A stretch of DNA of 64,000 nt from positions 1,984,001 to 2,048,000 of the forward strand of contig OY969807.1 in assembly GCA_963703285.1 (NCBI GenBank), in the 5' to 3' direction. This document shows, piece after piece, positions 36,410 through 55,007 of this stretch. Under the pieces are notes generated by a model, which was not told the origin of the DNA, did no database searches, and worked only from the letters and a program-made list of their open reading frames with translations. Each line of letters opens with the position of its first letter. Position 1 is the stretch's first letter. Origin of the DNA: an uncultured Nitrososphaerota archaeon (lineage in GTDB: Archaea; Thermoproteota; Nitrososphaeria; Nitrososphaerales; Gagatemarchaeaceae). The position numbers and the translations under genes were made by a program.

Positions 36410-36471
36410 CTTCGGTCTGGCGTTCCTGCCACCAACGGTGGGTCACGCAGGACTCGAGCGCCGCCCGACGC

Positions 36472-36508
36472 TTACTCCTCGTCGAGGAACTCGGCGGGGT
36501 TCGGCGGC
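36472..36508 (-). repeat. fusA 3'-end copy 6 (PPNPAEFLDEE*, TAA)
   Basis: ttactcctcgtcgaggaactcggcggggttcggcggc matches the fusA end at 52818. Confidence 0.85.
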
Positions 36509-36570
36509 CCATCGGGGCGAACGCTCCTCAAAAGGTTGAATTAGGCAGCGGCCCTCGAGCCTTCCAGACC

Positions 36571-36948
36571 TTGCCAGAGGACGCGCCAAGCACGAACCCG
36601 GGAGCGGTGAGCGACCACCTGGCCAACGAGCGGACGTACCTCGCTTGGGTCCGGACGGGCATCGCGGTCATCGCCCTCGGATTCGTCGTGGCGAAGTTCG
36701 GGTTGCTGGTAAAGGAGCTCGCCCCGTCGGCTCCCTCGACCTCCTACGGGTTCTCGTCGGACATCGGGATAGCGCTGGTCATCGTCGGCGGGCTGATGCA
36801 GCTGCTCGCCCTGAGCCAGTTCGTCCTCAACCAGCGCAGGATTAGGGGTGGCAGGTACGAGCCGAGCAGAGGGATTGAGGTCCTCATCTCCGTCCTGGTC
36901 TTCGCGGTGGCGCTCCTGCTGGTGGTCTACCTCGCGGTCACGACGTGA
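36571..36948 (+). CDS. DUF202/YidH family membrane protein
   Basis: DHLANERTYLAWVRT. Confidence 0.9.
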   Translation: MPEDAPSTNPGAVSDHLANERTYLAWVRTGIAVIALGFVVAKFGLLVKELAPSAPSTSYGFSSDIGIALVIVGGLMQLLALSQFVLNQRRIRGGRYEPSRGIEVLISVLVFAVALLLVVYLAVTT

Positions 36949-37048
36949 GGGTGCGGTCGGGCCGCCTGACGCCCCTCGCCGGCAGTGGACGAAGTCGGCG
37001 CCCGGGCTACACCGCCCTTGCGTCCCTCCATCTTGAGCTGCCTGCTCC

Positions 37049-37234
37049 TTGTCGACGAACCCTCGAGTTCAGGGTCAGGGCCGACGCCGGAAAATCGGGG
37101 TACGCATCGGCGGCGCCGCTCCGTCTGCGTACTACCCCTTCGGGGGCAGGAAGGATTCGTTCTACGCGGTCCTGCACGCCCAGATCGACACGGTCGACTT
37201 CTTCACCGACAAGAAGATAGCGATATCGAAGTGA
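37049..37234 (+). pseudogene. C-terminal remnant of a (methyl)malonate-semialdehyde dehydrogenase-type aldehyde dehydrogenase
   Basis: AYYPFGGRKDSF...HAQ..VDFFTDKK resembles the MmsA/IolA C-terminus; rest of the gene absent. Confidence 0.6.
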
Positions 37235-37380
37235 GAGTTCCGGACGGCTGTCAGGCACTAAGGGTCTCTTCTTCGGGGGGCTCTCAGAGCTAAAAGGCGC
37301 GGACGGCTGACGCCTCGGGTGGAAGGTGACACGAACTGCCCCTAGGTCGGGGCGTAGTTCTCATACTTGGGTCGCGGGTC

Positions 37381-38586
37381 GTGAGAACCTTCCCGCTCGG
37401 AATCTTGGGCGTCCTACTCCCAGTCTACCTCTCGGCGATCGGGTCGTCGGTCTTCGTGGGCCTCTTCTTCTCCCTTTCCGCTCTATCTAGCTTCCTGGTC
37501 CTACTGCTGCTCGGACTGCGGGGCCAAAGAATCCGGGTACGCAACGCCCTGGTCGCCCAAATCTTGCTCTTCTCGGCATGTCTCACGGTGATGACATTCT
37601 CCCCGATAGCCGCGCTCTTCCTAGTTGCGGCCGCTATCTCGATCACGAACTGGGCCCCCGGTGGGGGCAGCGGCACCGCAGGCGGCGCCTACAACACCTC
37701 CGTCAACATACTACTCAGCGAAAACTCCGAGCCGAGTGGCAGGACCTTGGCGCTCAGCCTCTCGTCGGTAATCGGGGCGCTTTCGTTCGCGGCGGGGGCA
37801 TATTTCCTAAGCACCCTTAACATCCCCCGCTCCGAACTCGTGATCTCCCCTCTCACGAACGGTTCTCTCAATCTTGCGAAGCCCTCGACAGTATTTGCTA
37901 TCTCGGCGATCACCCAGCTCCTGGCTGCCGTCCTCTTGCTTAGGGTCAAGAACAAGAGCTCGGTGATCTCGGACAACGCGGCACCGCGGGGCGGACCCAG
38001 CGGCGGCCCCCAGGACCGGAGTACCGCGGTCGCGGTCTTCAGGCAGGCCTTCTCGTTGATTGCCGCCGAGTTCTCAAACGGTCTGGGGAACGGCATCTTC
38101 ACCCAACTCGTGCCCCTTTGGCTCTACGTGCGCTTCGGCATAAGCCTCGGGGAGGTGGCCGAGATCTTCTCCGTCGTCGGGGTGCTCACTGCGTTCATCG
38201 TGCTAGCATCTCCCCGGTTGGAATCGAGGATTGGGTCGATAAACGCCATATTCGCCGCCCGGTCCCTGTCGGGCGCCCTCCTGGTCGTGACTGCTCTCGC
38301 GCCGAGCTTGGTCGTCGCGTTGATTCCCTACTTCGCGTCGCTGGTCTTCTCCCGGGTCTCGCTCCCGATTCAACAGTCGTTCGTCTTCGCAAAGGTGAGT
38401 CGGGGCGAGTGGACGAGGGGAGCCAGCATGATCGCCACGGCAAACGTGGCGGGGACGGTGATAGGGCCGACGCTGGGCGCCTTTCTTCTTCTCAACGTCA
38501 ATCCTGGCCTGCCCTTCTTCATCGCGGCGCCCTTCATCCTCCTCAGCGCTTGGATATACCGAAGGTTCCTCCACCAGAGCCACTGA
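37381..38586 (+). CDS. MFS transporter
   Basis: About 12 TM helices; start may be slightly upstream. Confidence 0.75.
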   Translation: MRTFPLGILGVLLPVYLSAIGSSVFVGLFFSLSALSSFLVLLLLGLRGQRIRVRNALVAQILLFSACLTVMTFSPIAALFLVAAAISITNWAPGGGSGTAGGAYNTSVNILLSENSEPSGRTLALSLSSVIGALSFAAGAYFLSTLNIPRSELVISPLTNGSLNLAKPSTVFAISAITQLLAAVLLLRVKNKSSVISDNAAPRGGPSGGPQDRSTAVAVFRQAFSLIAAEFSNGLGNGIFTQLVPLWLYVRFGISLGEVAEIFSVVGVLTAFIVLASPRLESRIGSINAIFAARSLSGALLVVTALAPSLVVALIPYFASLVFSRVSLPIQQSFVFAKVSRGEWTRGASMIATANVAGTVIGPTLGAFLLLNVNPGLPFFIAAPFILLSAWIYRRFLHQSH

Positions 38587-38663
38587 GACGCGCCGCGCCG
38601 TCGCGGCCGCTGCGTGGTCGTGGGCACAATCCCTATTATCAGAGGCCCTTCGAAGTCTGGGCC

Positions 38664-40061
38664 ATGCCCAAGCGCTCGAACTACCCGCCAGCAAGGTACC
38701 CCAACTTCAGGCCGGTATCGAGAGCGGTGCTCAGGCGCAGGATAGGGTCGATAGTTGCGCGGCCACCCTCCGAGGACCTCGAGAACCAGCCACACATGCC
38801 CCGCTACGGCATAAAGAAGGGTGACCGTGTTCTGGTGATAGCTCTGACTGAGTTCGACCCCCTCGTCGTCGAGGAGTACGTGGAAGCGATGAGGGCGTCC
38901 GGCGGGAAGGTCGACCTCCTTACGATCGACTCGAAGCCGACGGTGCCGCCTGAAGACGCAGCGGTGCAGGAGGCAGAGAGCATAGAGCCCAGCGGAGACA
39001 AAGACGTCGTCTACACAAGAATGACCAACCTATTGAACCCCAACTCTCTGTCAGGCCTGGTCCGGGCCGAAGGCTACGACCTGGTCGTGAGCGGCACCGC
39101 TGGGCCCCTCCCCAGAGTTCCATACAGATGGGTGAGGATGGAGTACATCAGCCGGGAGGAGTTCTCGAGCCCCCAGATAGACTTCCCCTTCGAGCTTCAG
39201 TCACTGATAGACCGGAAGGTGTTCGAGGCAATTCGCAGTTGCGAGAGGGTAAGGATCACCGACCCCGAGGGAACGGACGTATCTTTCACGAACTACGATG
39301 ACAAGCGACCCTTGGCCATGGCACACGAGTACGGCAAGCCCATCAACTTCGGATATGGCGGCATCGAGGACTGCACCGGAGTGATTGCAGGCACGCTGAA
39401 CCACCTGGGCGCTTTCCCCAACTGCAGGGCTCACGTCAAAGACGGCCTGATAGTGAAGGTGGAGGGAGGGGGAAAGTACGGAGACGTGTGGAGGGAGAAG
39501 CTGGAGAAGTACCGGGACGTCGTATTCCCGGAATATCCGATGCGAACCGCGATGAAGCTCCCCGAAGATGGCGCCCCGAAGATCCGAACCCAGAGACCAG
39601 GCTTCTTCTGGTACTGGGAATGCGCCATCGGAACGATCCCCGGAGTATTCAGGCTCAGAGACGAGGGCGCGATGACCCACTTTGCGAACTTCCTGCACGA
39701 CAGGAAGCGCGCGGGCTACCTTCACCACGGCTTCGGGGGTTCCAACAACTCCGCCCCGTTGCTGATCAAGGCCGGTCTTCCGTGGACTCACGTCCACCTA
39801 CACAACATGTTTGCCACCTACGAAGGGCGAACCAAGAACGGCGAAAGCGTGAAGGTGATCGATAGGGGTCACCTGACCGCCCTGGAAAACGCGGACGTTC
39901 GTGCCCTTGCCGCCAGGCTAGGAGTCTCCAACATGCTGAGCGAGGTCTGGATACCCGCCGTCCCGGGAATCAACGTTGCCGGAGATTACGACGACTACTC
40001 GGCAAACCCATCCGAGTGGATAAGGTCAGAGGCGAAGAAGCACCCTACTCTCTCCGCGTAA
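38664..40061 (+). CDS. Putative metalloenzyme (aminopeptidase M29/NicX-like fold)
   Basis: VRITDPEGTD.SF, VEGGG, E.AIGT, LHHGFG and HVHLH metal-site-like motifs. Confidence 0.5.
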   Translation: MPKRSNYPPARYPNFRPVSRAVLRRRIGSIVARPPSEDLENQPHMPRYGIKKGDRVLVIALTEFDPLVVEEYVEAMRASGGKVDLLTIDSKPTVPPEDAAVQEAESIEPSGDKDVVYTRMTNLLNPNSLSGLVRAEGYDLVVSGTAGPLPRVPYRWVRMEYISREEFSSPQIDFPFELQSLIDRKVFEAIRSCERVRITDPEGTDVSFTNYDDKRPLAMAHEYGKPINFGYGGIEDCTGVIAGTLNHLGAFPNCRAHVKDGLIVKVEGGGKYGDVWREKLEKYRDVVFPEYPMRTAMKLPEDGAPKIRTQRPGFFWYWECAIGTIPGVFRLRDEGAMTHFANFLHDRKRAGYLHHGFGGSNNSAPLLIKAGLPWTHVHLHNMFATYEGRTKNGESVKVIDRGHLTALENADVRALAARLGVSNMLSEVWIPAVPGINVAGDYDDYSANPSEWIRSEAKKHPTLSA

Positions 40062-40161
40062 TCACAGCGTTCTCGGCCCAGGCGGCATCCCCGGAGAAAC
40101 GAGGAGGGGATTCAGGAGCGTCCTGGAACGTTTATTTAGCAAATTCGGCCGCGATTTCCCC

Positions 40162-40566
40162 GTGGATAAGAAGAGAATAACTGTCGACTCTGTTCCGGAG
40201 GCGGGGAAGAGAGACGCCTCGGGGACCCTTACCCCTGCGCCCGTCTCTAACGCGATAAGGTACGGAGATCTGGTGTTCACAACCGCGAAGCCTGGGCGCG
40301 ACCCCTCGGGAAGGCTGGCCGAGGGCATCGAGGGCCAGACAAGACAGGCCCTGGAGAACATCAAGGCGCTCCTGACGGCTGCGGGCACCGACATGGAACA
40401 CGTGCTCAAGACGTGGGTCTACGTGACGGACATAGGGTATTTTGAAGGAATGAACAGGGTGTATTCCACCTACTTCAAGGTCCCGCCGGCGCGCACCTTC
40501 CTGGTGACCACAGGGTGGTTCGATCCGGAGCAGCTCATAGAGATTGAGGTCATAGCGGGCATCTAG
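40162..40566 (+). CDS. RidA/YjgF family protein
   Basis: QTRQALENIKALL, MNRVY..YF..PPART, IEIEVIA. Confidence 0.9.
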   Translation: MDKKRITVDSVPEAGKRDASGTLTPAPVSNAIRYGDLVFTTAKPGRDPSGRLAEGIEGQTRQALENIKALLTAAGTDMEHVLKTWVYVTDIGYFEGMNRVYSTYFKVPPARTFLVTTGWFDPEQLIEIEVIAGI

Positions 40567-40569
40567 TCC

Positions 40570-41562
40570 TTGAAAACCTCGTTCGGCGTCAGAGTCCCAG
40601 TTTCCGGCCCATTCGCTGACTTGCAGAACATCAGGCGGGCCGCCCTGGAGTCCGAAGCTCTCGGGTTCGACGCTCTCTGGGTCCACGACCAGATTGTCTG
40701 GAGCAAGGAACAGAACTCCCACCACGTGTCGTCGGGGTCGGTGGAGGCCGTCACAGACAGAGACCCCAACTTCTTCGAGTCGATAACGACGCTCAGCTAT
40801 CTCGCCGGATTGACAAACAAGATCAGGCTGGGAGTGGCCGTCATCGTCCTTCCATACCGCAACCCTCTGGTCCTGGCGAAACAACTCATGAACCTCGACG
40901 TAATTTCGAACGGCCGGCTGATACTCGGCGTCGGAGCGGGAGCCCCTTTGGTGGCCAAGACCTTCGAGGCCGTGGGCGTGTCCTTCGAAAAGAGAGGAGA
41001 AATCACCGACGATTACCTGAAGGCGCTGCTTTCGGTGTTCGAGCGCCAGCCCCATTCGAGCTACTCCGGAAAGCACGCCAGCTTCGCAGGAATCGAGGTC
41101 TTCCCGAAACCGGTTCAGGCACCCCACCCTCCCATCATCGTCGGCGGACTTGGGAGAGCCCTTAGAAGAGCAGCGATGCTGGGAGACGGATGGATTCCCG
41201 CCAACATAACTCCCGATAACGTGAAGAAGGGAATAGCACGGATAGATTCGATCGCGAGGAAGAACGGAAGGCGGCTACCCGAGTTCATCGTCGGGAACGA
41301 GACGTTCGTCAGCCTGGACCGGGACTCGAACGCGGCGCGCAGAAACGCGGCGGCAACAGTCGCCAGTTACGCGAAGTCGATAGGCCGGGGGGGCGAAGAC
41401 GTCACCCTGATCGGATCGCCTTCGGAGGTTGTCGAGAGGGTGGAAGCCTACCGCCAGTCGGGGGTGAACATGTTCGAACTGAAGTTCATCTACAGGGACA
41501 TGGAGAGCCTGAGCTCGCAGTTGAAGCTGTTCGCGTCAGACGTGGCGCCCTCCTTCCTTTAG
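40570..41562 (+). CDS. LLM-class (probably F420-dependent) oxidoreductase
   Basis: GFDALWVHD, IRLGVAV..PYRNP, GRLILGVGAG, PKPVQ.PHPPI. Confidence 0.9.
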   Translation: MKTSFGVRVPVSGPFADLQNIRRAALESEALGFDALWVHDQIVWSKEQNSHHVSSGSVEAVTDRDPNFFESITTLSYLAGLTNKIRLGVAVIVLPYRNPLVLAKQLMNLDVISNGRLILGVGAGAPLVAKTFEAVGVSFEKRGEITDDYLKALLSVFERQPHSSYSGKHASFAGIEVFPKPVQAPHPPIIVGGLGRALRRAAMLGDGWIPANITPDNVKKGIARIDSIARKNGRRLPEFIVGNETFVSLDRDSNAARRNAAATVASYAKSIGRGGEDVTLIGSPSEVVERVEAYRQSGVNMFELKFIYRDMESLSSQLKLFASDVAPSFL

Positions 41563-41701
41563 CGCTTCGTGACGCGGGGCGTCACGGCCAGTCGGGAGTC
41601 CTCGACGCGCTCCAGACAAGCTCGAATGATTTCCGGTCGGCGGATCCGCAACTCGTTGCAAACCGTTTAATATTCAGCCTCCCCCCCGAAGGAGACGTAC
41701 C

Positions 41702-43088
41702 TTGGTTTCACACGACCTCGCGATTGAAGGTGCACAGGTGTTCATCGACGGCGACCTGACGGAAGCCAACCTAGGAATCAGCGACGGAGTCATCTCGGCC
41801 GTGACGAAGGACACGCTCCAGGCTTCGGAGAGGCTCAGGTTCCCCGGCAAGATTGTCATCCCGGGCATCGTCGACCTGCACTCACACATAAGAGACCCTG
41901 GCTACACCTACAAGGAGGACTTTCAGACCGGGTCCATGGCCGCCGCCGCAGGAGGGGTCACGATGTTCGTGGACATGCCAAACGTCGAACCTCCAACGGA
42001 CAGCCTGAAGACCTTCGAGGAGAAGAAGAAGATCGCGTCGAAGAAGTCGATGGTCGACTTCAACCACTTCGTCTTCCCGAAGATCCCCGAGGTCGGCAGG
42101 GTCGCCCGGGCCGGAGCCGCGGGTTTCAAGATATTCATGGTCCGTGGCGCCTATCCCCACGACCCACGGATCTGCATTGAGGACCATGCCACCCTCTACA
42201 AGACGTTCGCTGCGATCAAGAAGACAGGGCTTCCCTGTCTGGTCCACCCCTCGAACATGTCCCTCTTCGAGGCCTTCTACGGGGAGCATCGAAAGAAGAA
42301 TCCAAAGGAGAAGCCGTACATCAGCTTCGGGAAGGCGTACATCGAAGAGGAGATTCTACGGAACCTCCGCTTCGGTGCTCGCAATTCTGGCGAAGCGGAC
42401 CGGAGTAAGGCTCCACCTCGTCCACACCCATTCTGAGCAGGCCATCGAGGTCCTCAGGCAGGCGAAGGCAGCGGGGTACGACATCACGGCCCAGACGGAC
42501 CCGAAGTACTTTGTCACGACCGCGGAGGAACTCCGACGCCTCGGGCCCCTGGTCCTTCCAGGAGGGCTTCTCTCGAAGCGCAGGGTCGCGGCGGTCTGGA
42601 ACGCGCTCAGAACAGGGACCATAGACGTGCTTGGCACCGATCACGCTCCTCACACCAAGAAAGAAGTCGAGGAGACCATGGCAAAAGATCCCTGGGCCGC
42701 TCCCTTCGGCTGCCCTCAGCTCGAGCACTACCTCTCGGTCTTTCTCAATGAAGTGAACAAGGGAACCATCTCTCTGTCTCAGCTTATGAGAGTGGCCTCG
42801 ACGAACCCTGCCAGGATAATCAACGTGTTCCCGAAGAAGGGGACGATTAGGGTGGGCTCGGATGCGGACCTGGTCGTGGTGGACATGAAGAAGGAGAAGA
42901 AACTGACCGGCGAGAAGGTCTACACCAAGGTCGGCTGGACCCCCTATGAAGGGAGGACTGTGAAGGGAGTGCCCATAATGACCATCAGGCGCGGCGAGGT
43001 GATCATGAGGGACGGGGTAGTCGTCGGCAAGCCTGGCTCTGGCAAGTTCGTCGCCCCACTGAGGACTCCGATGGTCAAGCGCCGCTAA
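41702..43088 (+). pseudogene. Dihydroorotase/allantoinase-family amidohydrolase with one frameshift near 42350
   Basis: PGIVDLHSH, GGVT..DMPN in the first frame; GTDHAPH, NPAR, KG.I.VGSDAD in the second frame. Confidence 0.8.
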
Positions 43089-44223
43089 GATCAGCGCCGG
43101 CCAATCGTCTCGTCAGCAGGCAAACCTGGCTGATCGCGCTCTTCCTGACATGCTCGACGGTGTCTTCCACGGTGGTTGCCGTTGGCGTTGGGTAGGACCT
43201 CAACCACGATGCCCGGTATCCCCTTTCGAGGAATGCGTCGCAGTCGGAGCCCCGCGGGGTCGAGAGGCGCGGGAGCCTCAGGCCGAGACTCTCGGCGAGT
43301 GAAGAGATCCTCGAGTTGAGGCCTTCGGAAAGGCGGCCCGCTCTCGAGTTATCCACCAGGTGGAGCCGCCCCGACCCCACGGAATCAAGGTTAACGACAC
43401 TCGGTCGAGTTTCAAGGACTTTCTCAGCGACAAAATGACGAGCGCCAACCAGGCCATATTCCTCTGCGTCGGTCGATAGAAGTGCGAACGAAGGGTTCTT
43501 GATGACTTCTGCAAGGAAGAGAAGAAGCGAGGTGCCCGACGCGTCGTCGAGGGCACCCGGGGAGAAATGCCTCGAGTCGCGGTGCGCCACGTAGACGGCC
43601 GTCGTCTTCGCGTTCCTTGGCGTCGCGAAGATGTTTGTGCCTCGACCACGTACCAGCTCAGCGCGCAGGGTCATGAGGGCTTGCAACGCTTTGCCGGTCG
43701 AGTCCTCCCAGAGCCTCTCGCCAAGCTCGCCGGGAATCATGAGGCAAGGGATTGAAGACGAAGGATACCTCACTCGCCCTGACAGCAGGCGTCCCCTGCT
43801 CTGAAAAATCAGAGCCGCGATGGCGCCCCTCTCGGCCAGGTCTTCCGCAGCCGTCGACTCGTGCGTGGCGGACACCCTCACCAGAGCTATCTTTCCCTGA
43901 ACGTCCTCACTATCCGACCTGCACACCCCTCCAGCCAATCCTGACCTCGGCGTCGAGATGGAGCAGATTGCAGGAAGGCACCTGATGTCCTCACCATCCA
44001 AAGTGAGCCTCCATCGCTCAGGACTGTACCTCTGAAACTCGAAGTGGTCCTCTGTGATTGAGAACCCTCCGGAGCCCTCGATTGACGAGCGCACCAACTC
44101 GCGCGCCCGTTCGCCTTCCCTCGATCCGGCTGCCCTGGGCCCGCGCGACAGCCTCGCGATCCACTCGATTACGAAGCTGGCGTCCGCCCTCTTGCTCCCT
44201 GAGACGACTCGATGGGCTCGCAT
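43075..44223 (-). CDS. M28 family peptidase with PA domain
   Basis: AHRDS, GALDDASG, AEEYGLVGA, NLDSVG, GSD; start inferred. Confidence 0.75.
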   Translation of the reverse strand: MRAHRVVSGSKRADASFVIEWIARLSRGPRAAGSREGERARELVRSSIEGSGGFSITEDHFEFQRYSPERWRLTLDGEDIRCLPAICSISTPRSGLAGGVCRSDSEDVQGKIALVRVSATHESTAAEDLAERGAIAALIFQSRGRLLSGRVRYPSSSIPCLMIPGELGERLWEDSTGKALQALMTLRAELVRGRGTNIFATPRNAKTTAVYVAHRDSRHFSPGALDDASGTSLLLFLAEVIKNPSFALLSTDAEEYGLVGARHFVAEKVLETRPSVVNLDSVGSGRLHLVDNSRAGRLSEGLNSRISSLAESLGLRLPRLSTPRGSDCDAFLERGYRASWLRSYPTPTATTVEDTVEHVRKSAISQVCLLTRRLAGADLSGA

Positions 44224-44282
44224 CCGCTGCTGTGGGAGGGTCAGGTAATGGCTATATACTTCCTCACGCCGGTACAAGCCGG

Positions 44283-45533: not shown

Positions 45534-46135
45534 AGACCGCCATCATCGCGGCAGGTATACTGGTATTGCTGGTTGGTATAGCGGTGATAGCTTACGGACT
45601 GTCGTCACCCACAACATCGACCAGTGCCTCGACGACAACCGCATCCGACCCTGTGGTCCCGAACACGAGCAGGACGATTTCAACGAACGGCTTTTGGGCG
45701 ATGGGCGCGGCCAGCCTGGTCCCGGGAGAGTCAGTCACGGGCACGGTAGCCGTCTCCAACTACAGTAGCTCTGCAGGGCCCATCTTCGTCTACGTTCAGA
45801 ACGAGTCCACGTTCATAGCATGGGGCGCCTGCGCTCCCTGCGGCGTAAGCAATCAGCTCAACAAGTCGTTGTCCTCCACCGGTTCGTACACATTCACGTG
45901 GACAGCACCACAAGCCGGTAGCTACTACTTCGTCTTGGACGCCGAATACTATAACGCGGCCGCGCCTGCCTCCTTCTCGGCAAACGCAATGACCACCTCC
46001 ACAATTCAGATATCGCAGTCGACTCCTAACACGACAGTCAACTACGGAGGAGTCGCCGTAGCGGTGGTCGGCGCCATCATCCTAGGAATGGGCCTAATCG
46101 TGGGAACTCAGGCTCGCAAACCGCCTGGGAGCTGA
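45530..46135 (+). CDS. Membrane protein with extracellular beta domain
   Basis: N- and C-terminal TMs, GSYYFVLD. Confidence 0.6.
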   Translation: MKTAIIAAGILVLLVGIAVIAYGLSSPTTSTSASTTTASDPVVPNTSRTISTNGFWAMGAASLVPGESVTGTVAVSNYSSSAGPIFVYVQNESTFIAWGACAPCGVSNQLNKSLSSTGSYTFTWTAPQAGSYYFVLDAEYYNAAAPASFSANAMTTSTIQISQSTPNTTVNYGGVAVAVVGAIILGMGLIVGTQARKPPGS

Positions 46136-46185
46136 GCCGCCGAACGGCTCTTGTACACCTCCTTCGAAGGAAGTAGCGGTAGCCG

Positions 46186-47779: not shown

Positions 47780-47782
47780 CCG

Positions 47783-48556
47783 TTGGCCCTTGGTCTTCTG
47801 ACGAGCAACTGGGCCATCAGAATCTACGCCCTCGCAATCTTCCTGACGGGGTGGCAATTGATAGGGCAGTCGGTGAACCCGATAATATTCGCCCCTCCAG
47901 CCAAGGTCGCATCGGCCTTCTCCAGCCTGTGGTCCGCCGGAACGCTCCAGGCTGACACCCTCGTAACCCTCGAAACGATGTTTGCTGGATTCTTGGTATC
48001 CTGTGCTGTCGGGATCCCGCTCGGGCTCCTGATGGGACGAATTCGGCTCGCCGAGTACACCTTCGATCCGTATGTGAATTTCATCTATGCAACGCCGGTG
48101 GTTGCGATAATCCCCATCGCGCTCATCTGGTTCGGCCCGAGCATCTCGGCCACGTACTTCATCATCTCACTTCACACCATACCTCCAATTCTGATCAACA
48201 CCATGGCCGGTGTGAAGGACACAGAGAGGAGCATTCTGGAGACCGGCAGAGCCTTTGGGTTCAAAGGAAGGAAGCTGTGGCAGAAGGTTGTCATACCGGC
48301 GTCGGCTCCCTTCATCATGGCCGGACTGAGAATCGGTATCGGCGCGGCGTTGATAGGGACGATGGTCGCCGAGATCTTTCTCTACAACGCCGGCTTGGGC
48401 TATCTGCTTGTGAATGAGACGGCCTTCTTCAACAGCGCTGCGGTCGTGTGCGGGGTCCTGATTATCATGGTTATCGGCGTGGTCCTGGCGGAGTCGACAA
48501 AGTGGCTAGACCGGAGGTTCGTTGGCTGGGCTCGCGGGGCTTCCGGAGTGAGATAG
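47783..48556 (+). CDS. ABC transporter permease (NitT/TauT)
   Basis: Paralog of the 46186 permease, same motifs. Confidence 0.9.
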   Translation: MALGLLTSNWAIRIYALAIFLTGWQLIGQSVNPIIFAPPAKVASAFSSLWSAGTLQADTLVTLETMFAGFLVSCAVGIPLGLLMGRIRLAEYTFDPYVNFIYATPVVAIIPIALIWFGPSISATYFIISLHTIPPILINTMAGVKDTERSILETGRAFGFKGRKLWQKVVIPASAPFIMAGLRIGIGAALIGTMVAEIFLYNAGLGYLLVNETAFFNSAAVVCGVLIIMVIGVVLAESTKWLDRRFVGWARGASGVR

Positions 48557-48615
48557 ACCAGCCCGGTTGAGAGCGAAGCACCGAGGACTGGGAGTGCAGG
48601 AGTCTGGCAGGGGAC

Positions 48616-48638
48616 GCGGGCCCGGATGGATTCGAACC
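48616..48638 (-). other. tRNA 3'-end-like fragment (GGTTCGAATCCATCCGGGCCCGC), possible att remnant
   Basis: T-loop consensus plus acceptor 3' strand; no complete T-stem or 5' half. Confidence 0.45.
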
Positions 48639-48653
48639 TGCGAGTCCCTGGAC

Positions 48654-48691
48654 CTACTCCTTGTCGATGAACTCTGTGGGGTTCGGCGGCT
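48654..48691 (-). repeat. fusA 3'-end copy 5 (37/38 identical, TAG)
   Basis: Direct comparison with 52818-52855. Confidence 0.92.
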
Positions 48692-48697
48692 TTGACA

Positions 48698-48946
48698 TCA
48701 TCCGTAAGCAGAGCCTCTGCTGGCAATCTTGAAAACGAGAACCGTCTGAGCGTCGGCGATTGTATAGAGTATCCGGTAATCGCCAACTCTGAGCCTGTAT
48801 GAGTTTGGTATTCCCCGAAGCTTCTTGCAGCCTTGCGGATAGGGAGATTCCACGAGTTCGGATATCCTTGATTCGAGCCTTTCTCTCAGAACCGGCGGTG
48901 ATTCATCTAGGGCCTTCTTGGCTCTGCTCGATAGATAGACCTTCAA
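48698..48946 (-). CDS. RelE/ParE family toxin
   Basis: KKLRG...YRLRVGDYRILY...R..Y. Confidence 0.88.
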   Translation of the reverse strand: MKVYLSSRAKKALDESPPVLRERLESRISELVESPYPQGCKKLRGIPNSYRLRVGDYRILYTIADAQTVLVFKIASRGSAYG

Positions 48947-49113
48947 CGCTTACGGGACCTGACGAATGGCACCGATCTTCCTTCCTTGTGCTCCTGAACC
49001 GCCTCAGCGAAAGCTCTCCTGTCATCCTCGGAGGTCTCCTCAGACAGCGCCTCCTCGATCGAATCGAGTCGCCTTCTGATGAGGTTCAATTCCTTCTCGA
49101 GGCCCGTCTCCAT
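48943..49113 (-). CDS. Putative antitoxin, 56 aa (not in ORF track)
   Basis: METGLEKELNLIRRRLDSIEEALSEE...EHKEGRSVPF; stop overlaps the RelE TTG start. Confidence 0.75.
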   Translation of the reverse strand: METGLEKELNLIRRRLDSIEEALSEETSEDDRRAFAEAVQEHKEGRSVPFVRSRKR

Positions 49114-49189
49114 CTTATCCTCTCTTGAGTCCTTGGACGTAATTAAACCCTGCTCGCTGGGATTGAAGTCCCGAAGTCCGGGTTCGGGC

Positions 49190-49231
49190 CTACTCCTTGC
49201 CGATGAACTCTGTGGGGTCCGGTGGCTCCGG
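49190..49231 (-). repeat. fusA 3'-end copy 4 (38/42 identical, TAG)
   Basis: Direct comparison with 52818-52859. Confidence 0.9.
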
Positions 49232-49316
49232 GCTAAGGTCTGGCCATGTCCTAATCTGCGAATCAGTCAACCGAAACGCTTCTGTCAATTGGAACCGAAT
49301 CATGAGCTTGATGGGT

Positions 49317-49796
49317 CTACGGCGCTGGATTTGACGGAGGCAGCAATTCCTTCTTCACAAAGTCGCTGAACGAACGGTCAAACCAGTCTTCCATTCTGTC
49401 GTCTGTCCAGACTTTTGCAATCAACCCGCGACTGAAGGCGTTCTTCATCCACAGCAGCTCTCCCTCCCATTCGTTGTCGCTGAGGATTTTCCTCTGCTTC
49501 ATGTGATAGGTGTGCGCGCACATTAGCAGGATTTGGTAGGCAAAATGTCTCTCCTTGCGAGATTCGACCGGCAACTGGTTGTTGATTACCTTCAAGAGAC
49601 TCGGGTCTTCCTGTAGCGTCGCGGACAGGCTTTGGTGCATCTTGTCGATGTCGGCCAGGACCCTGGTCTCCAAGTCGACCTTCTGACTCCGCACCTGCCG
49701 GGTGGAAAAATAGAGCGTCACACCAAGAGCCCCTATCAGCACTATTGACTGTACCAGGCTCAGCACGTCGCTGAATCCAAGGGCAGCCACAGCCAC
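49317..49796 (-). CDS. Hypothetical protein with N-terminal TM helix
   Basis: TM followed by helical domain; start inferred from upstream TATA-like box. Confidence 0.6.
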   Translation of the reverse strand: MAVAALGFSDVLSLVQSIVLIGALGVTLYFSTRQVRSQKVDLETRVLADIDKMHQSLSATLQEDPSLLKVINNQLPVESRKERHFAYQILLMCAHTYHMKQRKILSDNEWEGELLWMKNAFSRGLIAKVWTDDRMEDWFDRSFSDFVKKELLPPSNPAP

Positions 49797-50006
49797 CGTA
49801 TCACCATGAATTGATAGATTAACTTTTGGACAAGTAAGGAGTGCCCAGACCAACCTTCAATACCGCAAGCACGATGTCTTTCTAGTAGGTTCCCGAAACA
49901 GAAGACTGTCTGCAGGAGAATGTGGTGGTCGCTATCCGGGTGGGAAATCCGGCCTGGCATCTCGCAAGAGTTCAGGCCCTACAGGATCGAACCCGAGTCT
50001 GAGCCG

Positions 50007-50043
50007 TCACTCCTTGCCGATGATTTCGGCGGGCGGCGGTTCC
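50007..50043 (-). repeat. fusA 3'-end copy 3 (EPP-PAEIIGKE*, TGA; one-codon deletion)
   Basis: tcactccttgccgatgatttcggcgggcggcggttcc aligns to the fusA end. Confidence 0.7.
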
Positions 50044-50108
50044 CGAGCGGGCAAGGCATCTGCTTCCTGGGGCAAATCGGTTGCCACGTCAAGTTCTCGC
50101 AGGCTGCC

Positions 50109-50288
50109 TTAGCGTCCTCGACTGTTAGTTATCGCCTGATTTATGTCATTCAGGGCCAGAATCTCTTCACCGAATGTCTCCTGACTTCTCTCCCATGCGA
50201 CCAAGGCGCGTCGCACGACTACTCTACGAAGTCTTAGGAGAATCTTTAGGAGCTCTTCTTGTGCTTCTTCGTCGCTCTTCTCGGCCAA
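50109..50288 (-). CDS. Small hypothetical protein, 59 aa (not in ORF track)
   Basis: MAEKSDEEAQEELLKILLRL...; overlaps the upstream small ORF. Confidence 0.45.
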   Translation of the reverse strand: MAEKSDEEAQEELLKILLRLRRVVVRRALVAWERSQETFGEEILALNDINQAITNSRGR

Positions 50289-50392
50289 TTGTCGATCACC
50301 TTATCAGCCCTTGAAGCGATGTAGGCTTCCCACTTCTCGGGATCGCGGCTAAGTTTCCCTATCTTCCTTAGCACGTCGTCCGATTCTCCCAT
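50246..50392 (-). CDS. Small hypothetical protein, 48 aa (not in ORF track)
   Basis: MGESDDVLRKIGKLSRDPEKWEAY...; TATA-like CTTATAT about 30 bp upstream. Confidence 0.45.
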   Translation of the reverse strand: MGESDDVLRKIGKLSRDPEKWEAYIASRADKVIDNWPRRATKKHKKSS

Positions 50393-50466
50393 TCGAGTCA
50401 CAACTGAGTATAAGGGCGCTGGATATAAGCGGTGCGTAGTCTCGAGTCAGATGGTACGCGGCTAGA

Positions 50467-50526
50467 TTATTCTTTGTCAATGAACTCCACTGGGTTCGGC
50501 GGCTCGGGCCAGAGGCCCTTCGTCTT
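50467..50526 (-). repeat. fusA 3'-end copy 2 (KTKGLWPEPPNPVEFIDKE*, TAA)
   Basis: Protein-level match with many synonymous changes. Confidence 0.88.
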
Positions 50527-50944
50527 TTCCCAGGACCTTGATCACAGGCAGTGAGCCGCTGATTCCCACAGAAGACGTTTCGAGTTACCTAATCGGTCAC
50601 AGCTTCGAGAGCTTCTTCGTCAGCGTCCGGTGAGTCTCCAGAGTCTCCTCTATGGCTCTCTTCTACGCGTCGGCCTCTGATTCTGGATGTCATTCCTGCT
50701 TCGCCTTCATACGATTGATTTTTCATGTCCATTCCAGCCTCCTAAGCCTACCCTTCAACCAAGCAACCGCCTGAGGGAGAGTCATCCTGTCGGCTGCAAC
50801 GTCAAAGCATGAACCTGATTGCCGCATCGTCCTGAACCGCGAACACAAGGCAGGTTGTAAAGGCCTCTCGGGACCACCTGACTTCGGCCTCGCGCACGTG
50901 TCTGCTGTGTTTAAGAATGCGTGAACGGCATCTGAGGGAATCGA

Positions 50945-51505
50945 ATGTTCGGCCTGACAAGCTTCGAGTCAGTTGATTCTGTCCTGGCTTTGTTGAGCAT
51001 CGCCATAGGGGTCTCGATATTCTTGATGCAGCAGAGGGCCGACGAAAAAATAAACGGCATAATCAAGAGGCAGTTCAGACGGCAGGAGCTCGAAAAGAAG
51101 TACTTCGGGACGAGGCTGATTTCGAATCTGGAGCTCGTGAGGAAGAATTATCTTAAACTGCGGCAGTTTCTGGGTGATTATCTCAACGACCATTCGCAGG
51201 CCAGCAGGCAGAAGGTGAAGAGCTTCTGTACGTTCCACAGCAAGCATCTGGACGAGTACGTCGTTCCAACGCTGCGAAGCGACCTGGGGCGACTGATCGA
51301 GTTCATAGACGACCTGGAACTGGTCGACCAGCTCTCGTCAGCGTTCGATGACTTGTCATCTCCTTTCAAAGATTGTTCCGTTGACAGCGCGCTCGACGAA
51401 CCTGACTCATCGCTGAGAGGGAAGATGTCCTCTTTGCAGGAACGGTCCGAGCGAATCGAATCCCTTCTGTCGAAGCTTGGGAGAGAGGTTCCGACGTTGG
51501 AGTAG
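50945..51505 (+). CDS. Hypothetical protein with N-terminal TM helix
   Basis: 186-aa ORF behind TTTAAG box. Confidence 0.6.
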   Translation: MFGLTSFESVDSVLALLSIAIGVSIFLMQQRADEKINGIIKRQFRRQELEKKYFGTRLISNLELVRKNYLKLRQFLGDYLNDHSQASRQKVKSFCTFHSKHLDEYVVPTLRSDLGRLIEFIDDLELVDQLSSAFDDLSSPFKDCSVDSALDEPDSSLRGKMSSLQERSERIESLLSKLGREVPTLE

Positions 51506-51678
51506 TCGCCCCGGCAAAGCCCCGGAACGCGATGGTGACGATAGCGGAATCGGGGCTTGCCATCCCGGGTCGTCCAGCCCCCGAGGCCCAGCCAAGTCGC
51601 CCGTTCGAAGATTCGACTATGACTTCCAAAACCCGGGAAGCAATCATTATATGCCGCAAGCCCTCAGGAACCTCTACA

Positions 51679-51858
51679 ATGCTTCGATACGCGTGCAGGA
51701 CTTCAGGGCTCGACTGCGACGCGGTCTTCACGACAAAGACCGAGGAAGAGCTGATCAATCAAATCAACCAGCATGCCATTCAGGTGCACGGATTAGAGCC
51801 GAGCGACTTGAGCCCGGAGCTCATGCGCCAAGTCAAGGCCAAGATCGAACGGTCCTAG
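51679..51858 (+). CDS. DUF1059-like small metal-binding protein
   Basis: C....DC......TEEEL.....HA...HG. Confidence 0.75.
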   Translation: MLRYACRTSGLDCDAVFTTKTEEELINQINQHAIQVHGLEPSDLSPELMRQVKAKIERS

Positions 51859-51980
51859 GGGCCATCGTGGCGAATCCTTGGCGAGAAAGCCGCCGACCGC
51901 CCTCGCGGAACCGAAGGTGCCGCGGAAGCCTCTGAGTTTGCCTCGAAGACCCATCTTGCCTGCTTTCTTCCCCGCTTCCC

Positions 51981-52087
51981 CTACTCCTTGTCTATGAACT
52001 CGGCGGGGTTCGGCGGCTCCGGCGCCAGCCCCTTCCTCTTCCTAATCTCCATGACCAGCGGCAGGAGCATGTTCGTCGGGACCGACT
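51981..52087 (-). repeat. fusA 3'-end copy 1 (103/107 identical, TAG)
   Basis: Matches 52818-52924; three synonymous differences and one T>M difference. Confidence 0.97.
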
Positions 52088-52504
52088 TCCTACATCAATC
52101 CAACCTAGATGTTCGCGTCTTCCGATCTCCTTGAGCCGGTCGAAATGCCGATCGGACGATACGATTGCCTCAGCCCGGGACCGCATCGCCGAGGCTGCGT
52201 GGATCGCATCTCTGGGGTCGAGCCTGTACCTCCTGATCAGGTCGAGTGCCGACGGCAGCAGGTCGCCATCGACGGACAGGATTCCCAGACCCGGCATCGT
52301 CAGGTAAGCCTCTCCGGCTGTGGCCGCGTCCTCAGGGCTCCTGTGCCTCTTGACCACCCAAACGATTTCGTCGAAGGCGAGCGCCGACGATGCTGCCTGC
52401 TGACGGCCCGACTGCACCTCTCCGAGGAGCGCTCTCGCCCGCTTGCCTATCCTATCCGTGCTCAGAGCCGCGTAGATGAACACGTTCGAATCGAGGTAGA
52501 GCAG
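51992..52504 (-). CDS. vapC: PIN-domain (VapC) toxin; C-terminus runs on into the fusA copy
   Basis: YLDSNVFIY, FDEI, DAIHAA, IVSSDRHFD; start (CTG) inferred. Confidence 0.85.
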   Translation of the reverse strand: MLYLDSNVFIYAALSTDRIGKRARALLGEVQSGRQQAASSALAFDEIVWVVKRHRSPEDAATAGEAYLTMPGLGILSVDGDLLPSALDLIRRYRLDPRDAIHAASAMRSRAEAIVSSDRHFDRLKEIGRREHLGWIDVGSRSRRTCSCRWSWRLGRGRGWRRSRRTPPSS

Positions 52505-52508
52505 GTCT

Positions 52509-52763
52509 TCATTCCCTGCCTTTCAGCTCGTCTTCGTAGGCGTGGGCCGGGACGCGCGATATCGAGCGCCCCTTCGACGCTATTCTTTCGAAGAGCGCCA
52601 CCGAGTCGGTCTCGGCTCTCTCGAGGAGGAGCCTGTCGCCTTCCAGCTTAAAGACGACCTTCGAGCCGGGGTGGACGTTCAGCGCCCTGCGCATGACTTT
52701 CGGAATCACGACCTGGCCCTTGGGACCGACTTTCATCTCCTCCTCTGCCGTGGGTGCGGTCAT
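52509..52763 (-). CDS. AbrB/MazE-type antitoxin (VapB)
   Basis: KVGPKGQVVIPKVMRRALNV.PG. Confidence 0.88.
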   Translation of the reverse strand: MTAPTAEEEMKVGPKGQVVIPKVMRRALNVHPGSKVVFKLEGDRLLLERAETDSVALFERIASKGRSISRVPAHAYEDELKGRE

Positions 52764-52817
52764 GTAGGTACCGGAAAAGTATAACCTCGATTTATACCTT
52801 CTCGCCCCGCGCCGACC

Positions 52818-55007
52818 CTACTCCTTGTCGATGAACTCTGCGGGGTTCGGCGGCTCCGGCGCCAGCCCCTTCCTCTTCCTTATCTCCGTGACCAGCGGCA
52901 GGAGCATGTTCGTCGGGACCGACTGCCAGAGCTTGAAGTTCGTGTTCCAAGTGGCCTTGCCCGCGGTCGCGCCCCTCATGACCTGCGAGAGGTCGAAGGT
53001 CTCGGCCGCCGGTATCTCGCCCTGGATGATTGTCACGACCTCCCTCTGCTCGACGTTGATGAGCTTCCCCCGCTTCGAGCTGATGACGCCCGTGATGGCG
53101 CCTATCAGGTCCCCGGGCCCCTTCACCTCTATCCCGAGTATCGGCTCCAGCAGCGTCGGGTTCGCCGTCAGCATCGCGCCCAGCACCGCCCTCCTCGTCG
53201 CGGGCATGAGCTGCGCGTAGGTCCTGTGCGCCGGGTCCTCGTGCGGGACGTAGTGGGTCAGCGTCACCTTCACACCCCTGCAGATCTCGTAGGCGAGCGG
53301 CCCGTTCTCCATGATGTCCTCGAACCCGGCCCGTATGGAGTCCATCGACTCCTGCAGGTACTGGACTCCCTTGGTCTCCTCGGTGAGCATGTTGCCCCTG
53401 GGGTCTATGGTCACGACCGACTTGGCGTCGTCCGACGACCAGCCGTTGTCCCTCAGCGTCTTCTGGATGCCCTTTTTGTCCGCCATCTCGTTGAGCGTCC
53501 CGTTCCTGATGAGCTCGACGATGTGCGGGTCGAGCGGCTCTACCTTGATGAATATCTTGTTGTGCCTGTTGGGGGAGCGCGACATCACCGGGCCCGCCGT
53601 GCCCCTGACCGCCTCCCTGTAGTTGATGATGGGCGGCGAGGTGATTATCTCGAGCCCCTGCTGCTGGAGCATCGTCGTCGCTATCTCCAGGTGGAGGACG
53701 CCCATCCCGGACATCAGCGTCTCGCCCGACTCCTGGTTGATGGTGATGATGAGGTTCGGGTCCTCGATGTTCAGCCTGCGCATCGCCTCGACGAGCTTCG
53801 GGAGGTCCCTCGGGTGCTTCGCCTCGACCGCAGTCGTCACAACAGGCTCGGAGACGTAGTGTATCGACTCGAACGGGACGACGTCCTTGAGGTTCGAGAT
53901 TGTCTCCCCCGAGCGGATGTCGAGCCCCAGCAGCGCCGGGATGTTGCCCGCCGGGAGCGAGTCCACTATCTCCCTCTGGAAGCCCATGAAGAGCTGGACC
54001 GACTGTATCTTCCCCTCCCTCTTGGAGTTGAGCAGGTAGACGGGGTCGCCGTTCGAGACGGAGCCGGAGAAGAGCCTCCCGACGCCCACCAGGCCAGCGG
54101 CCGGGTCGACGACGACGTTGGTGACCATCATGACCATCGGGCCGTTCTCGTCGCACGCCAGGAGCGACTTGCCGACGTCGCTGTTGAGGTCGCCCTGCCA
54201 AATCTTGGGGATGCGGTAGGCCTGCGCGACGTGCGGCGGCGGGTGGTGCTTCACTACCATGCCCAGGAGAGCCTCGTGGAGCGGGAGCTTCTTGCCCAGC
54301 CCCTCGGGGCCCACTGTCTGGTAGGCCTCGATGATGTCCTTGAACGACATGTTCGCCTGCTTCGCCATGACCGCGTTGAAGCCCCACTTGTCCTTGGACG
54401 AGCCGAAGGCGACCTGCCCGGCCGCGACCGTCACCTTCCACTTCTCCTTGTACTCGGGCTCCGCGTAGGTGTCGATTAGGCGGTTGAAGTCGTTTACGAT
54501 GTTGAAAAGCCACTTCTGCATCGCTTCGGGGCCTAAACGAAGCTCTTTTATCAAACGGTCGATTTTATTGATGTATAAGACCGGACGGACCCGTTCTTCG
54601 AGTGCTTGCCGCGTTACAGTCTCAGTCTGGGTCATAACTCCTTCAACCGAGTCTACAACGACGATTGCGCCGTCAACGGCCCTCAAACTGCGCGTTACTT
54701 TGCCAGTGAAGTCGATGTGGCCCGGCGTATCGATTAGATTGATTACATAGGGCTGCCCTTCCTCTTCGTAGTACAAAGTGACGTTTGCTGCCTTAATCGT
54801 CATCTGTCTGGACTGTTCCAGCTCCATATAGTCCAAAGCGAGCGCCTGTCCGGCAACGGAGGGTGAAAGCATCCCGCATGCGGCTAAAAGGGAGTCGGAC
54901 GTAGTGGTCTTCCCGTGGTCGACGTGTGCGATGATCCCCAGGTTCCGTATGTGCGTCCTATCGTGGACGATTTTTAGAGCTTCGGTTGTCGACTTGAACT
55001 TCGGCAT
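52818..55007 (-). CDS. fusA: Translation elongation factor 2 (archaeal EF-2)
   Basis: AHVDHGKTT, DTPGH, NKID, HEDPAHR diphthamide loop; 729 aa. Confidence 0.98.
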   Translation of the reverse strand: MPKFKSTTEALKIVHDRTHIRNLGIIAHVDHGKTTTSDSLLAACGMLSPSVAGQALALDYMELEQSRQMTIKAANVTLYYEEEGQPYVINLIDTPGHIDFTGKVTRSLRAVDGAIVVVDSVEGVMTQTETVTRQALEERVRPVLYINKIDRLIKELRLGPEAMQKWLFNIVNDFNRLIDTYAEPEYKEKWKVTVAAGQVAFGSSKDKWGFNAVMAKQANMSFKDIIEAYQTVGPEGLGKKLPLHEALLGMVVKHHPPPHVAQAYRIPKIWQGDLNSDVGKSLLACDENGPMVMMVTNVVVDPAAGLVGVGRLFSGSVSNGDPVYLLNSKREGKIQSVQLFMGFQREIVDSLPAGNIPALLGLDIRSGETISNLKDVVPFESIHYVSEPVVTTAVEAKHPRDLPKLVEAMRRLNIEDPNLIITINQESGETLMSGMGVLHLEIATTMLQQQGLEIITSPPIINYREAVRGTAGPVMSRSPNRHNKIFIKVEPLDPHIVELIRNGTLNEMADKKGIQKTLRDNGWSSDDAKSVVTIDPRGNMLTEETKGVQYLQESMDSIRAGFEDIMENGPLAYEICRGVKVTLTHYVPHEDPAHRTYAQLMPATRRAVLGAMLTANPTLLEPILGIEVKGPGDLIGAITGVISSKRGKLINVEQREVVTIIQGEIPAAETFDLSQVMRGATAGKATWNTNFKLWQSVPTNMLLPLVTEIRKRKGLAPEPPNPAEFIDKE

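Follow-up and report, generated by a model that had tools for sequence, protein, structure and literature searches.

The 3' end of fusA is an insertion hotspot for recombinase-free cargo in a genus of Gagatemarchaeaceae

Why should the last codons of an essential gene recur, one copy after another, in the DNA that lies beyond it? The question is raised by fusA (also written ef-2), the gene for archaeal elongation factor 2 (aEF-2), in a stretch of 64,000 nucleotides (nt) from an uncultured Nitrososphaerota archaeon of the Gagatemarchaeaceae (assembly GCA_963703285.1, contig OY969807.1, positions 1,984,001 to 2,048,000; hereafter the window). The original prediction held that incoming DNA repeatedly recombines into the end of fusA, supplies a new tail together with cargo and pushes the old tail downstream, giving an integron-like and time-ordered array of captured genes. 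Comparison of the window's genome (G000) with its relatives and with metagenome contigs shows that the fusA 3' end is an insertion hotspot across the genus, represented by 23 genomes (G000 and 22 congeners), that the inserted units are recombinase-free cargo and that each event leaves the previous, once-functional end of the gene behind. The hotspot of the genus coincides with the site that casposons use in this phylum.

The genome holds a single full-length fusA, which encodes 729 amino acids (aa) and occupies positions 52818 to 55007 of the window on the minus strand. Displaced copies of its end (tails) were sought by repeat finding within the window, by blastn-short of the final 120 nt of fusA against the whole genome, and by nhmmer with a profile hidden Markov model (the tail HMM) built from 20 resident fusA tails. 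Of the six tails predicted downstream of the gene, five were borne out, while the weak sixth rates only as probable; all are found on the fusA strand, no more than 16.4 kb beyond the gene. From fusA outward they are tail 1 (51981-52087, 107 nt, 103/107 identical), tail 2 (50467-50526, about 60 nt), the probable tail 3 (50007-50043), tail 4 (49190-49231, 38/42 identical), tail 5 (48654-48691, 37/38 identical) and tail 6 (36472-36508, 33/36 identical over 36473-36508), and they end, as had been noted, at differing stop codons, in this order TAG, TAA, TGA, TAG, TAG and TAA. Tail 2 was recovered by repeat search, by blastn (87.5% identity over 50474-50505) and by nhmmer, whose match extends to about 50526 (E 1.4e-10). 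Tail 3, which contains a one-codon gap, is 78% identical over 32 nt, was missed by blastn-short and has an nhmmer E value of 0.13, as compared with 1.9e-13 to 3.4e-5 for the five solid tails. The core common to all tails is the last 21 nt of fusA, stop codon included. The predicted start of four copies near the EPP codons holds for the window (36-48 nt) but not for the relatives, in which tails range from 18 to 147 nt.

The tails are confined to the array: blastn-short found nothing comparable elsewhere in the 2,252,123-base single-contig genome. The only other genome match with E<0.01, 18 nt at genome position 1395814, is not followed by a stop codon and was dismissed as a displaced tail, since it sits in an unrelated open frame. 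Across 21 loci, every one of the 37 non-resident tail HMM matches at E<=1 shares the strand of fusA; tail orientation is uniform within each of the 29 loci that hold at least two tails; and a reversed 21-mer used as a control gave no match in the 23 genomes. Because of these three results, a chance origin of the tail pattern is excluded.

For comparison with relatives, up to 20 kb downstream of fusA was examined in 16 congeners and in five genomes of other genera. Displaced tails at E<=1e-3 were present in 10 of the 16 congeners and their cargo differed: six tails were found in G009, four in G021, three in G003 and one each in G001, G010, G013, G014, G017, G018 and G020. The signal was borderline in G002 and G012, G007, G008 and G015 had no displaced tail by the tail HMM at this threshold, and the G006 contig ends inside fusA. 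Displaced tails were absent from all five genomes of other genera. In G008 no insert follows fusA, and this genome thus provides an empty site, whereas G018 carries an insert of 0.8 kb and G017 one of 2.2 kb, each followed by a displaced tail and then by downstream sequence of the G008 type. Because the empty site of G008 can be set against the occupied sites of G017 and G018, the tails mark insertions. Between the window and its closest relative, G010, only the gene that flanks the array distally is held in common, and cassette content among the relatives differs rather than being fixed and identical. Metagenomes were scanned with a degenerate 21-mer, which gave 103 stretches, and the 80 that were listed (L059-L138) were analysed. 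Many of these 80 contain arrays at the fusA ends of related soil archaea, with five tails in L071 and L073, four in L108 and L127, and three in L091 and L092, while contigs that matched the 21-nt part only were mostly low in G+C or unrelated.

The sequences of the tails bear upon where they came from. Tail lengths range from 18 to 147 nt, with the right edge fixed at the stop codon and the left edge variable; 11 of 33 non-redundant tails are 30-36 nt long, and the shortest are 18-24 nt, two of them exact. When displaced tails were compared with resident ones in 16 non-redundant loci, 100 of the differing codons proved synonymous and 78 non-synonymous. This synonymous share of 0.56 compares with 0.18 under simulated random change, and third codon positions account for 128 of the 206 differing bases. 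Long young tails are extreme in this respect, with ratios of synonymous to non-synonymous codons of 13:1 in L091 and 18:1 in L069. Within the window, the largely synonymous differences that had been described for the first two tails were confirmed, tail 1 having three synonymous and two non-synonymous codons and tail 2 eight and three. Because a decayed host copy cannot give a synonymous excess, the tails appear to have diverged as working ends in different lineages, so that they look like once-functional alleles rather than decayed duplicates, as originally proposed.

Other comparisons concern the way in which fusA sequence is distributed around the cargo. Between L091 and L127, the last 364 nt of fusA are 89.0% identical and the displaced tail with the next unit 93.9% identical (Fisher p 0.004). 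The last 80 nt of the window's fusA are 81-86% identical to the closest relatives, whereas the 400 nt before them reach 92.7% (p 0.002 for G009 and 0.07 for G010), and in these 80 nt the nearest relatives are no closer than distant ones. Identity is also patchy along the length of fusA. These patterns suggest that fusA sequence travels with the cargo. Furthermore, a unit encoding a ParE toxin is present in both G000 and G009, and the tails that flank it on both sides carry, upstream of the last 22 nt, the allele of their own host. Folded as single-stranded DNA, the tails formed hairpins no better than shuffled sequences did (z -0.5 to +1.0).

The order of insertion was predicted to be readable from the array, and this stands in part. 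L091 equals L127 with one extra unit of 1055 nt on the fusA side, and the newer unit likewise lies on the fusA side in the comparison of G000 with G009 at the ParE unit and of G008 with G017 and G018, so that all three comparisons are polar. However, tail decay shows no gradient with rank (11 vs 9 adjacent pairs, Spearman -0.08, p 0.67), and beyond the shared ParE unit, on its distal side, G000 and G009 carry different units. The order of the array is therefore polar in the available comparisons, which partly supports the prediction, but it is not a clean clock.

If units were inserted repeatedly, an enzyme might be expected among them. The original prediction saw no integrase in the window, and profile searches agree that none lies in or near the array. 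PF00589, the tyrosine integrase profile, has a single match in the genome, at genome position 1627840-1628340, 0.4 Mb from fusA and beside a tRNA-Leu gene; this integrase turned up in 11 of the 22 congeners, G009 not being one of them. It was considered as a trans-acting candidate and set aside, being patchy in the genus, not found in G009 and without a relative in 242 loci. None of the 23 genus genomes has a PF00589 match near fusA, and G009, with six displaced tails and 77% completeness, has no match anywhere. PF00239 matched one 183-aa frame at genome position 685876-686262, PF16795 had no match in the genome, and with these three profiles no tyrosine or serine recombinase was found in the units. 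Open reading frames (ORFs) upstream of fusA (P0001, P0002) gave no Pfam matches and by eye are not recombinases. A Pfam census covered 149 array ORFs, chosen for length out of 168 non-redundant ones (204 before de-duplication), and no recombinase is present among the 25 listed of 62 families. The families found in inserts, from this census and scans of G003 and G021, include ABC transporters, NHL propellers, cyclase-TPR proteins, HicA, MazE, PIN and PemK. Three high-G+C contigs with a tail but without fusA (L089, L121 and L070, among the 80 stretches) have no obvious recombinase by ORF inspection, which did not include a Pfam test. In viral contigs an exact 20-mer had two chance matches, both in an unrelated phage HTH gene.

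Searches for casposon features gave similar results. Cas1 (PF01867) has no match in G000; it occurs in 4 of the 23 genus genomes, never near fusA. Four Cas1 and two PolB queries found nothing in G000 by tblastn and only noise in the genus loci at E<=1. Terminal inverted repeats were absent from 36 units, in which the best local score was 13 (five units at p<=0.05), as against a score of 53 for the perfect 53-nt repeat of the positive control, a Nitrosotenuis locus (L241). The units were accordingly rejected as casposons, having no Cas1, PolB or terminal inverted repeats.

The physical reality of the array was assessed with contigs assembled from the short reads of four soil metagenome runs, all from one study that may include the genome's source sample. 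These contigs span the full stretch, with depth in 30/30 bins for X1 and X2. Among the listed pieces, X2 record 16 bridges the fusA end, X1 record 8 and X3 record 24 bridge both edges of tail 1, and X1 record 7 bridges tail 2, each with at least 31 nt on either side; the remaining tails are covered, with less than 31 nt on one side. No joint that skips a unit and no circle junction was seen in the contigs, which cannot reveal rare forms. Loose contig ends at 50202 and 51800 (two runs) lie away from the tails. The assembly differs from the read contigs by a single base at 42354 and at 52112, each in two runs, and both differences look like assembly indels. The first accounts for a 'split' amidohydrolase frame. 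At 52112 a base is missing in the read contigs, which would place the stop of a VapC gene near 52105, before tail 1; correcting it also removes an odd C-terminal extension of VapC.

The DNA between the tails consists of different modules of 0.4-12 kb, as predicted, which from fusA outward measure 0.73, 1.45, 0.42, 0.78, 0.50 and 12.1 kb. The cassettes have promoter-like stretches of their own and mixed orientation, and units 1 to 5 have a G+C content of 54-57% vs 62-64% in the flanks. Unit 1 (52088-52817, minus strand) has a TATA-like stretch directly after the fusA stop and encodes a VapB-like protein of the MazE/AbrB family (52509-52763) and the PIN toxin VapC (51992-52483 as assembled). Unit 2 (50527-51980) contains a DUF1059 gene (51679-51858) and an ORF of 186 aa without a family match (50945-51505), both on the plus strand. 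Unit 3 (50044-50466, minus strand) has one or more small ORFs at 50109-50401 without a family match, and relatives of its DNA lie downstream of fusA in four other genomes (L034, L042, L044 and L036). Unit 4 (49232-50006, minus strand) holds an ORF of 178 aa (49317-49853) with only a sub-threshold match to DUF6082. Unit 5 (48692-49189, minus strand) is the ParE unit, with a 56-aa presumed antitoxin (48943-49113) and a ParE/RelE toxin (48698-48946); in G009 it is also flanked by tails, and the two versions are 81% identical in nucleotides and 87% in amino acids. Unit 6 (36509-48653, 12.1 kb) contains transport and metabolism genes, namely DUF202, an MFS transporter, an unknown protein of 647 aa, a luciferase-like monooxygenase, an amidohydrolase, an M28 peptidase and an ABC transporter (binding protein, two permeases and ATPase). 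One of 22 congeners, G014, shares part of it (38623-48560), at a different, tail-free locus whose flanking genes have their G000 counterparts about 85 kb away from fusA.

Beyond tail 6, a variable stretch without a recognisable tail (34642-36471, plus strand) encodes an RDD/zinc-ribbon protein (35816-36409) and an ORF of 285 aa (34755-35612), and was not found in the fusA-downstream regions of relatives. The conserved distal flank is the gene for an adenylate cyclase-TPR protein of 637 aa (32728-34641, plus strand), convergent with fusA, which lies 3-14 kb downstream of fusA in six congeners; the G017 insert is itself a 44%-identical relative of this protein. Just distal to tail 5 lies a fragment resembling a tRNA T-arm and 3' acceptor (48615-48650, minus strand), and a T-arm-like fragment also follows the matching tail in G009. 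ARAGORN called no tRNA gene in the window or in 26 loci, and an Rfam scan of 34000-53500 at E<=1 gave a single meaningless match. T-arm-like strings are found 15-25 nt after several tails in relatives and are commoner than expected: a strict motif follows 3 of 54 tails, where the background rate is 0.003 per 60 nt, and some ten tails qualify under a loose one. The casposase of A. boonei recognises a T-psi-C-loop segment (PMC5137440).

Several known systems invite comparison with this locus. In thaumarchaeal casposons the 3'-distal part of ef-2 is the commonest target, and two casposons lie in tandem in one ef-2 gene, that of Candidatus Nitrosopumilus adriaticus (PMC4046053; PMC6563490), so that the original statement that no tandem array was known at archaeal fusA was not right. 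Elements with tyrosine recombinases also form arrays (PMC6563490). Casposon target-site duplications measure 1-27 nt (PMC4046053), and the casposase target is composed of the duplicated segment and an upstream recognition segment, an architecture from which successive elements are predicted to enter between the gene and the element before them (PMC5137440). An element of this type, 8.4 kb long with PolB and Cas1, lies directly 3' of fusA in L241; its boundaries are formed by an exact duplicate of the final 18 nt of the gene and by the perfect inverted repeats mentioned above. By tblastn, Cas1 or PolB genes or fragments adjoin fusA in many ammonia-oxidiser loci, and of 62 loci in which fusA shares no more than 72% identity with that of the window, only 3 showed a downstream tail copy (15-18 nt, exact). 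Three low-G+C, ammonia-oxidiser-like contigs (L065, L130 and L105) have isolated ef-2 ends without fusA, and because one of these lies beside a PolB fragment, the ends are probably the distal duplications of decayed casposons.

The fusA units resemble family 1 casposons in the phylum, the gene and the last 18-21 nt or so up to the stop codon, and also in that the site is reused, ef-2 is left intact and insertion on the gene side is expected. They are nevertheless different in kind from the published ef-2 casposons: the units lack Cas1, PolB and inverted repeats, the cargo measures 0.4-12 kb, and the repeats are imperfect, reach 147 nt and differ synonymously. In bacteria, integrative elements and decayed cis-mobilizable elements (CIMEs) accrete in tandem at the 3' ends of tRNA or protein genes (PMC5704250, which cites Pavlovic et al. 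2004). The present array shares with these a direct repeat of the target-gene 3' end at every junction, units without integration genes and a stepwise, composite island. It differs in that no integrase-bearing member was found at the site in the 23 genus genomes (the metagenome arrays were not scanned with PF00589 itself), in the single-operon size of most units, in the highly variable repeat length and in its archaeal host. Clusters of attC sites lacking an integrase (CALINs) include archaeal ones (PMC9668308). Small cassettes rich in toxin-antitoxin genes between recurrences of one site, often without a nearby integrase, and insertion at one end are common to integrons, CALINs and the fusA array. 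However, the site at fusA is the end of an essential gene and not a hairpin attC, IntI is absent, and the cassettes have promoter-like stretches of their own and mixed orientation. The term integron-like can stand as an analogy only: IntI is missing and the tails lack hairpins. Gene capture in archaeal chromosomes by integrated elements that leave tRNA-half repeats was reportedly described by She et al. in 2001, and in the tycheposon islands of Prochlorococcus partial copies of target genes record successive integrations. Both involve tRNA genes and identifiable integrases, neither of which holds for the fusA array.

Other places in the same genome present comparable arrangements. At genome position ~1,537,065-1,591,856 (L243-L245), outside the window, a second array of 55 kb contains at least 30 co-oriented copies of a direct repeat of about 45 nt, spaced 0.5-3 kb apart, with units that by eye are mostly toxin-antitoxin pairs (PIN/AbrB, HicAB and RelE) and small enzymes. 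With <=3 mismatches allowed, co-oriented clusters of a 33-nt core of this repeat were found in 14 of 22 congeners but in none of 18 genomes from other genera; the core is the same in species with a difference of about 20% in fusA. The 45-nt repeat shows no hairpin folding, unlike attC; no integrase adjoins the array in G000, and its ends gave no informative Pfam matches; in G011, one copy of the repeat lies about 650 nt from an integrase homologue. This array shows that cassette arrays with unstructured direct repeats are a habit of the genus. Displaced gene ends are likewise not restricted to fusA: the last ~70 nt of an MFS transporter gene (genome position 840523-840605) recur at 843330-843409 (L246), 2.8 kb downstream, around an insert with PHO4 and PhoU-like genes and without a recombinase. 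In addition, at genome position 193301-205147 a tRNA 3' end and the sequence that follows it recur at 197187 and 205105, which resembles tandem integrated elements at a tRNA gene; no PF00589 match was found there.

How, then, might the array have grown? The explanation tentatively preferred here, at somewhat under even confidence, is serial gain of cassettes mostly by homologous recombination through the fusA end itself, and we infer that the crossover falls within fusA homology rather than being made by a unit-borne integrase. The anatomy and the comparison of empty with occupied sites show that every addition provided fusA with a new, homologous final stretch up to the stop codon, and that the previous end stayed behind as a non-coding tail beyond the new cargo. 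This might occur by a single crossover with a circularised fragment from a related lineage that carries a fusA end and the DNA following it, in which case the length of the displaced tail would equal the length of fusA on the fragment. Alternatively, a linear donor consisting of fusA, cargo and tail could recombine once in the body of fusA and a second time by pairing its own displaced tail with the resident end of the recipient. By either route the cargo would join on the fusA side and the recipient's old end would become the next displaced tail, and later recombination and gene conversion between tails may reshuffle the array. The first duplications were possibly seeded by site-specific elements, because the fusA end is the casposon target of the phylum. 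A number of observations weigh against homologous recombination as the driver. If homology alone were the sole need, many conserved genes should carry arrays, and yet fusA is the only gene in G000 with at least three displaced ends. No recombination intermediate was seen, the read contigs, in which rare forms would not show, having no such joint at any tail. The use of the same 18-21 nt at the ef-2 end by casposons elsewhere points to a targeted site, one third of the tails fall at 30-36 nt, the clustering expected from a fixed attachment site, and the many tails of 18-24 nt are short for homologous recombination. The low G+C of units 1 to 5 suggests an origin outside the genus, which recombination with relatives does not explain. 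Finally, some of the allele evidence could also arise from gene conversion among tails, and the tail HMM, which tolerates third-position changes, may favour tails that differ synonymously.

Some of these same observations bear on the main rival, in which the units are miniature non-autonomous integrative elements whose attachment site contains the fusA end and whose recombinase is supplied in trans by the chromosome, a plasmid or a virus, the old end being an attR-like remnant. Such units would be likened to CIMEs, integron cassettes or Xer-dependent elements, and we regard this account as rather unlikely while giving it serious weight. Direct repeats of a 3' end with tandem accretion are a classic signature of this process (PMC5704250, PMC6563490), the last ~21 nt are common to all tails, which end exactly at the stop codon, the 30-36-nt class comprises 11 of the 33 non-redundant tails, the array is specific to fusA within the genome, the units are lower in G+C than the host, and a tyrosine integrase is present in the genome and in 11 of 22 congeners. 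Yet no recombinase lies in or adjoining any unit of the arrays examined; the contigs with a tail alone (L089, L121 and L070) have no obvious one by ORF inspection; the lone integrase is patchy, sits at tRNA-Leu and did not turn up in G009, the relative with the largest array; and the viral contigs offered nothing beyond the two chance matches. Tails of 18-147 nt fit poorly with a single attachment site, and host-specific tails on both sides of the ParE unit are not predicted by a fixed, element-borne arm. A casposase of the Cas1 type, supplied in trans, duplicating its target site and inserting on the gene side, the behaviour predicted of casposon arrays and CRISPR spacers, is a much less probable source of the array. 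In its favour are the position at ef-2, the commonest casposon target in the host phylum with one tandem case, the PolB and Cas1 element with its exact 18-nt copy ending at the stop in L241, the Cas1/PolB genes or fragments beside fusA in many ammonia-oxidiser loci, and gene-proximal insertion, as predicted from the architecture of the target (PMC5137440); moreover, the shortest tails (18-24 nt, two exact) fall within the published range of 1-27 nt. Against this, G000 has neither Cas1 nor PolB, the Cas1 genes of 4 of 23 genomes are never near fusA, no remnants rise above noise in the genus loci at E<=1, the 36 units have no terminal inverted repeats (maximum score 13 vs 53 for the control), most tails exceed in length any target-site duplication on record, and allele-like synonymous changes are not expected of a fill-in copy of the host sequence.

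That no mobile process is involved, the tails being local tandem duplications or assembly artefacts with ordinary chromosome between them, is scarcely credible. The assembly does contain single-base indel errors, and unit 6 does carry ordinary metabolic genes, but the same architecture with different cargo recurs in 10 independent congener assemblies and dozens of metagenome contigs, G008 provides an empty site, short-read contigs bridge several junctions, the tails differ as alleles do, and 10 kb of unit 6 lie elsewhere in G014 and were not found in the other 21 congeners. A bolder form of the preferred explanation, gain by recombination through the fusA end, is that the locus is an integrase-free capture platform, in which the ef-2 end is both the landing site and the portable recombination site of each cassette; this we consider doubtful. 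The further proposals that cassettes consisting of cargo and a replacement ef-2 end enter on the gene side, that toxin-antitoxin cargo stabilises the array and that host recombination drives it are similarly speculative. Such a platform could be likened, with equal reserve, to an integron or to a polar array of the casposon/CRISPR type, and it may be related to the array of 45-nt repeats.

The neighbourhood upstream of fusA presents features of its own. On the 5' side of the gene, the region 55076-62336 has a G+C content of 49-56% and holds an ArdC-N-like ORF, a Fic/DOC-like ORF and an ORF of 470 aa, the C-terminus of which is HEPN-like by eye and has no Pfam match. Except for a short stretch in one relative, this region is not conserved upstream of fusA in relatives, and from its sequence it looks foreign. 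Within it, a group II intron reverse transcriptase/maturase with an HNH domain (57249-59048, plus strand) has a counterpart in an identical 2.6-kb copy at genome position 1882206-1884808, and because this second copy is identical, the intron appears to have been recently active. A 39-nt direct repeat (95%; 59861-59899 and 62422-62460) brackets the region of the 470-aa ORF and may mark another small inserted unit.

Non-ammonia-oxidising thaumarchaea are abundant in acidic soils (PMC10640624), and the main text of that study contains no mention of mobile genetic elements, integrases or genomic islands. For the gain of accessory genes in these archaea, the ef-2 hotspot provides a concrete locus at which metagenomes allow gene flow to be followed from one strain to the next. 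The displaced tails and toxin-antitoxin units also explain stray 'fusA fragments' and small orphan ORFs in annotation. The hotspot contrasts with the use of the same site in ammonia oxidisers by casposons, which serve as a model for the origin of CRISPR repeat arrays, and it can serve to test whether capturing genes at an essential gene's end requires a dedicated recombinase at all. For the genus, the end of fusA is a long-lived landing pad for new DNA.

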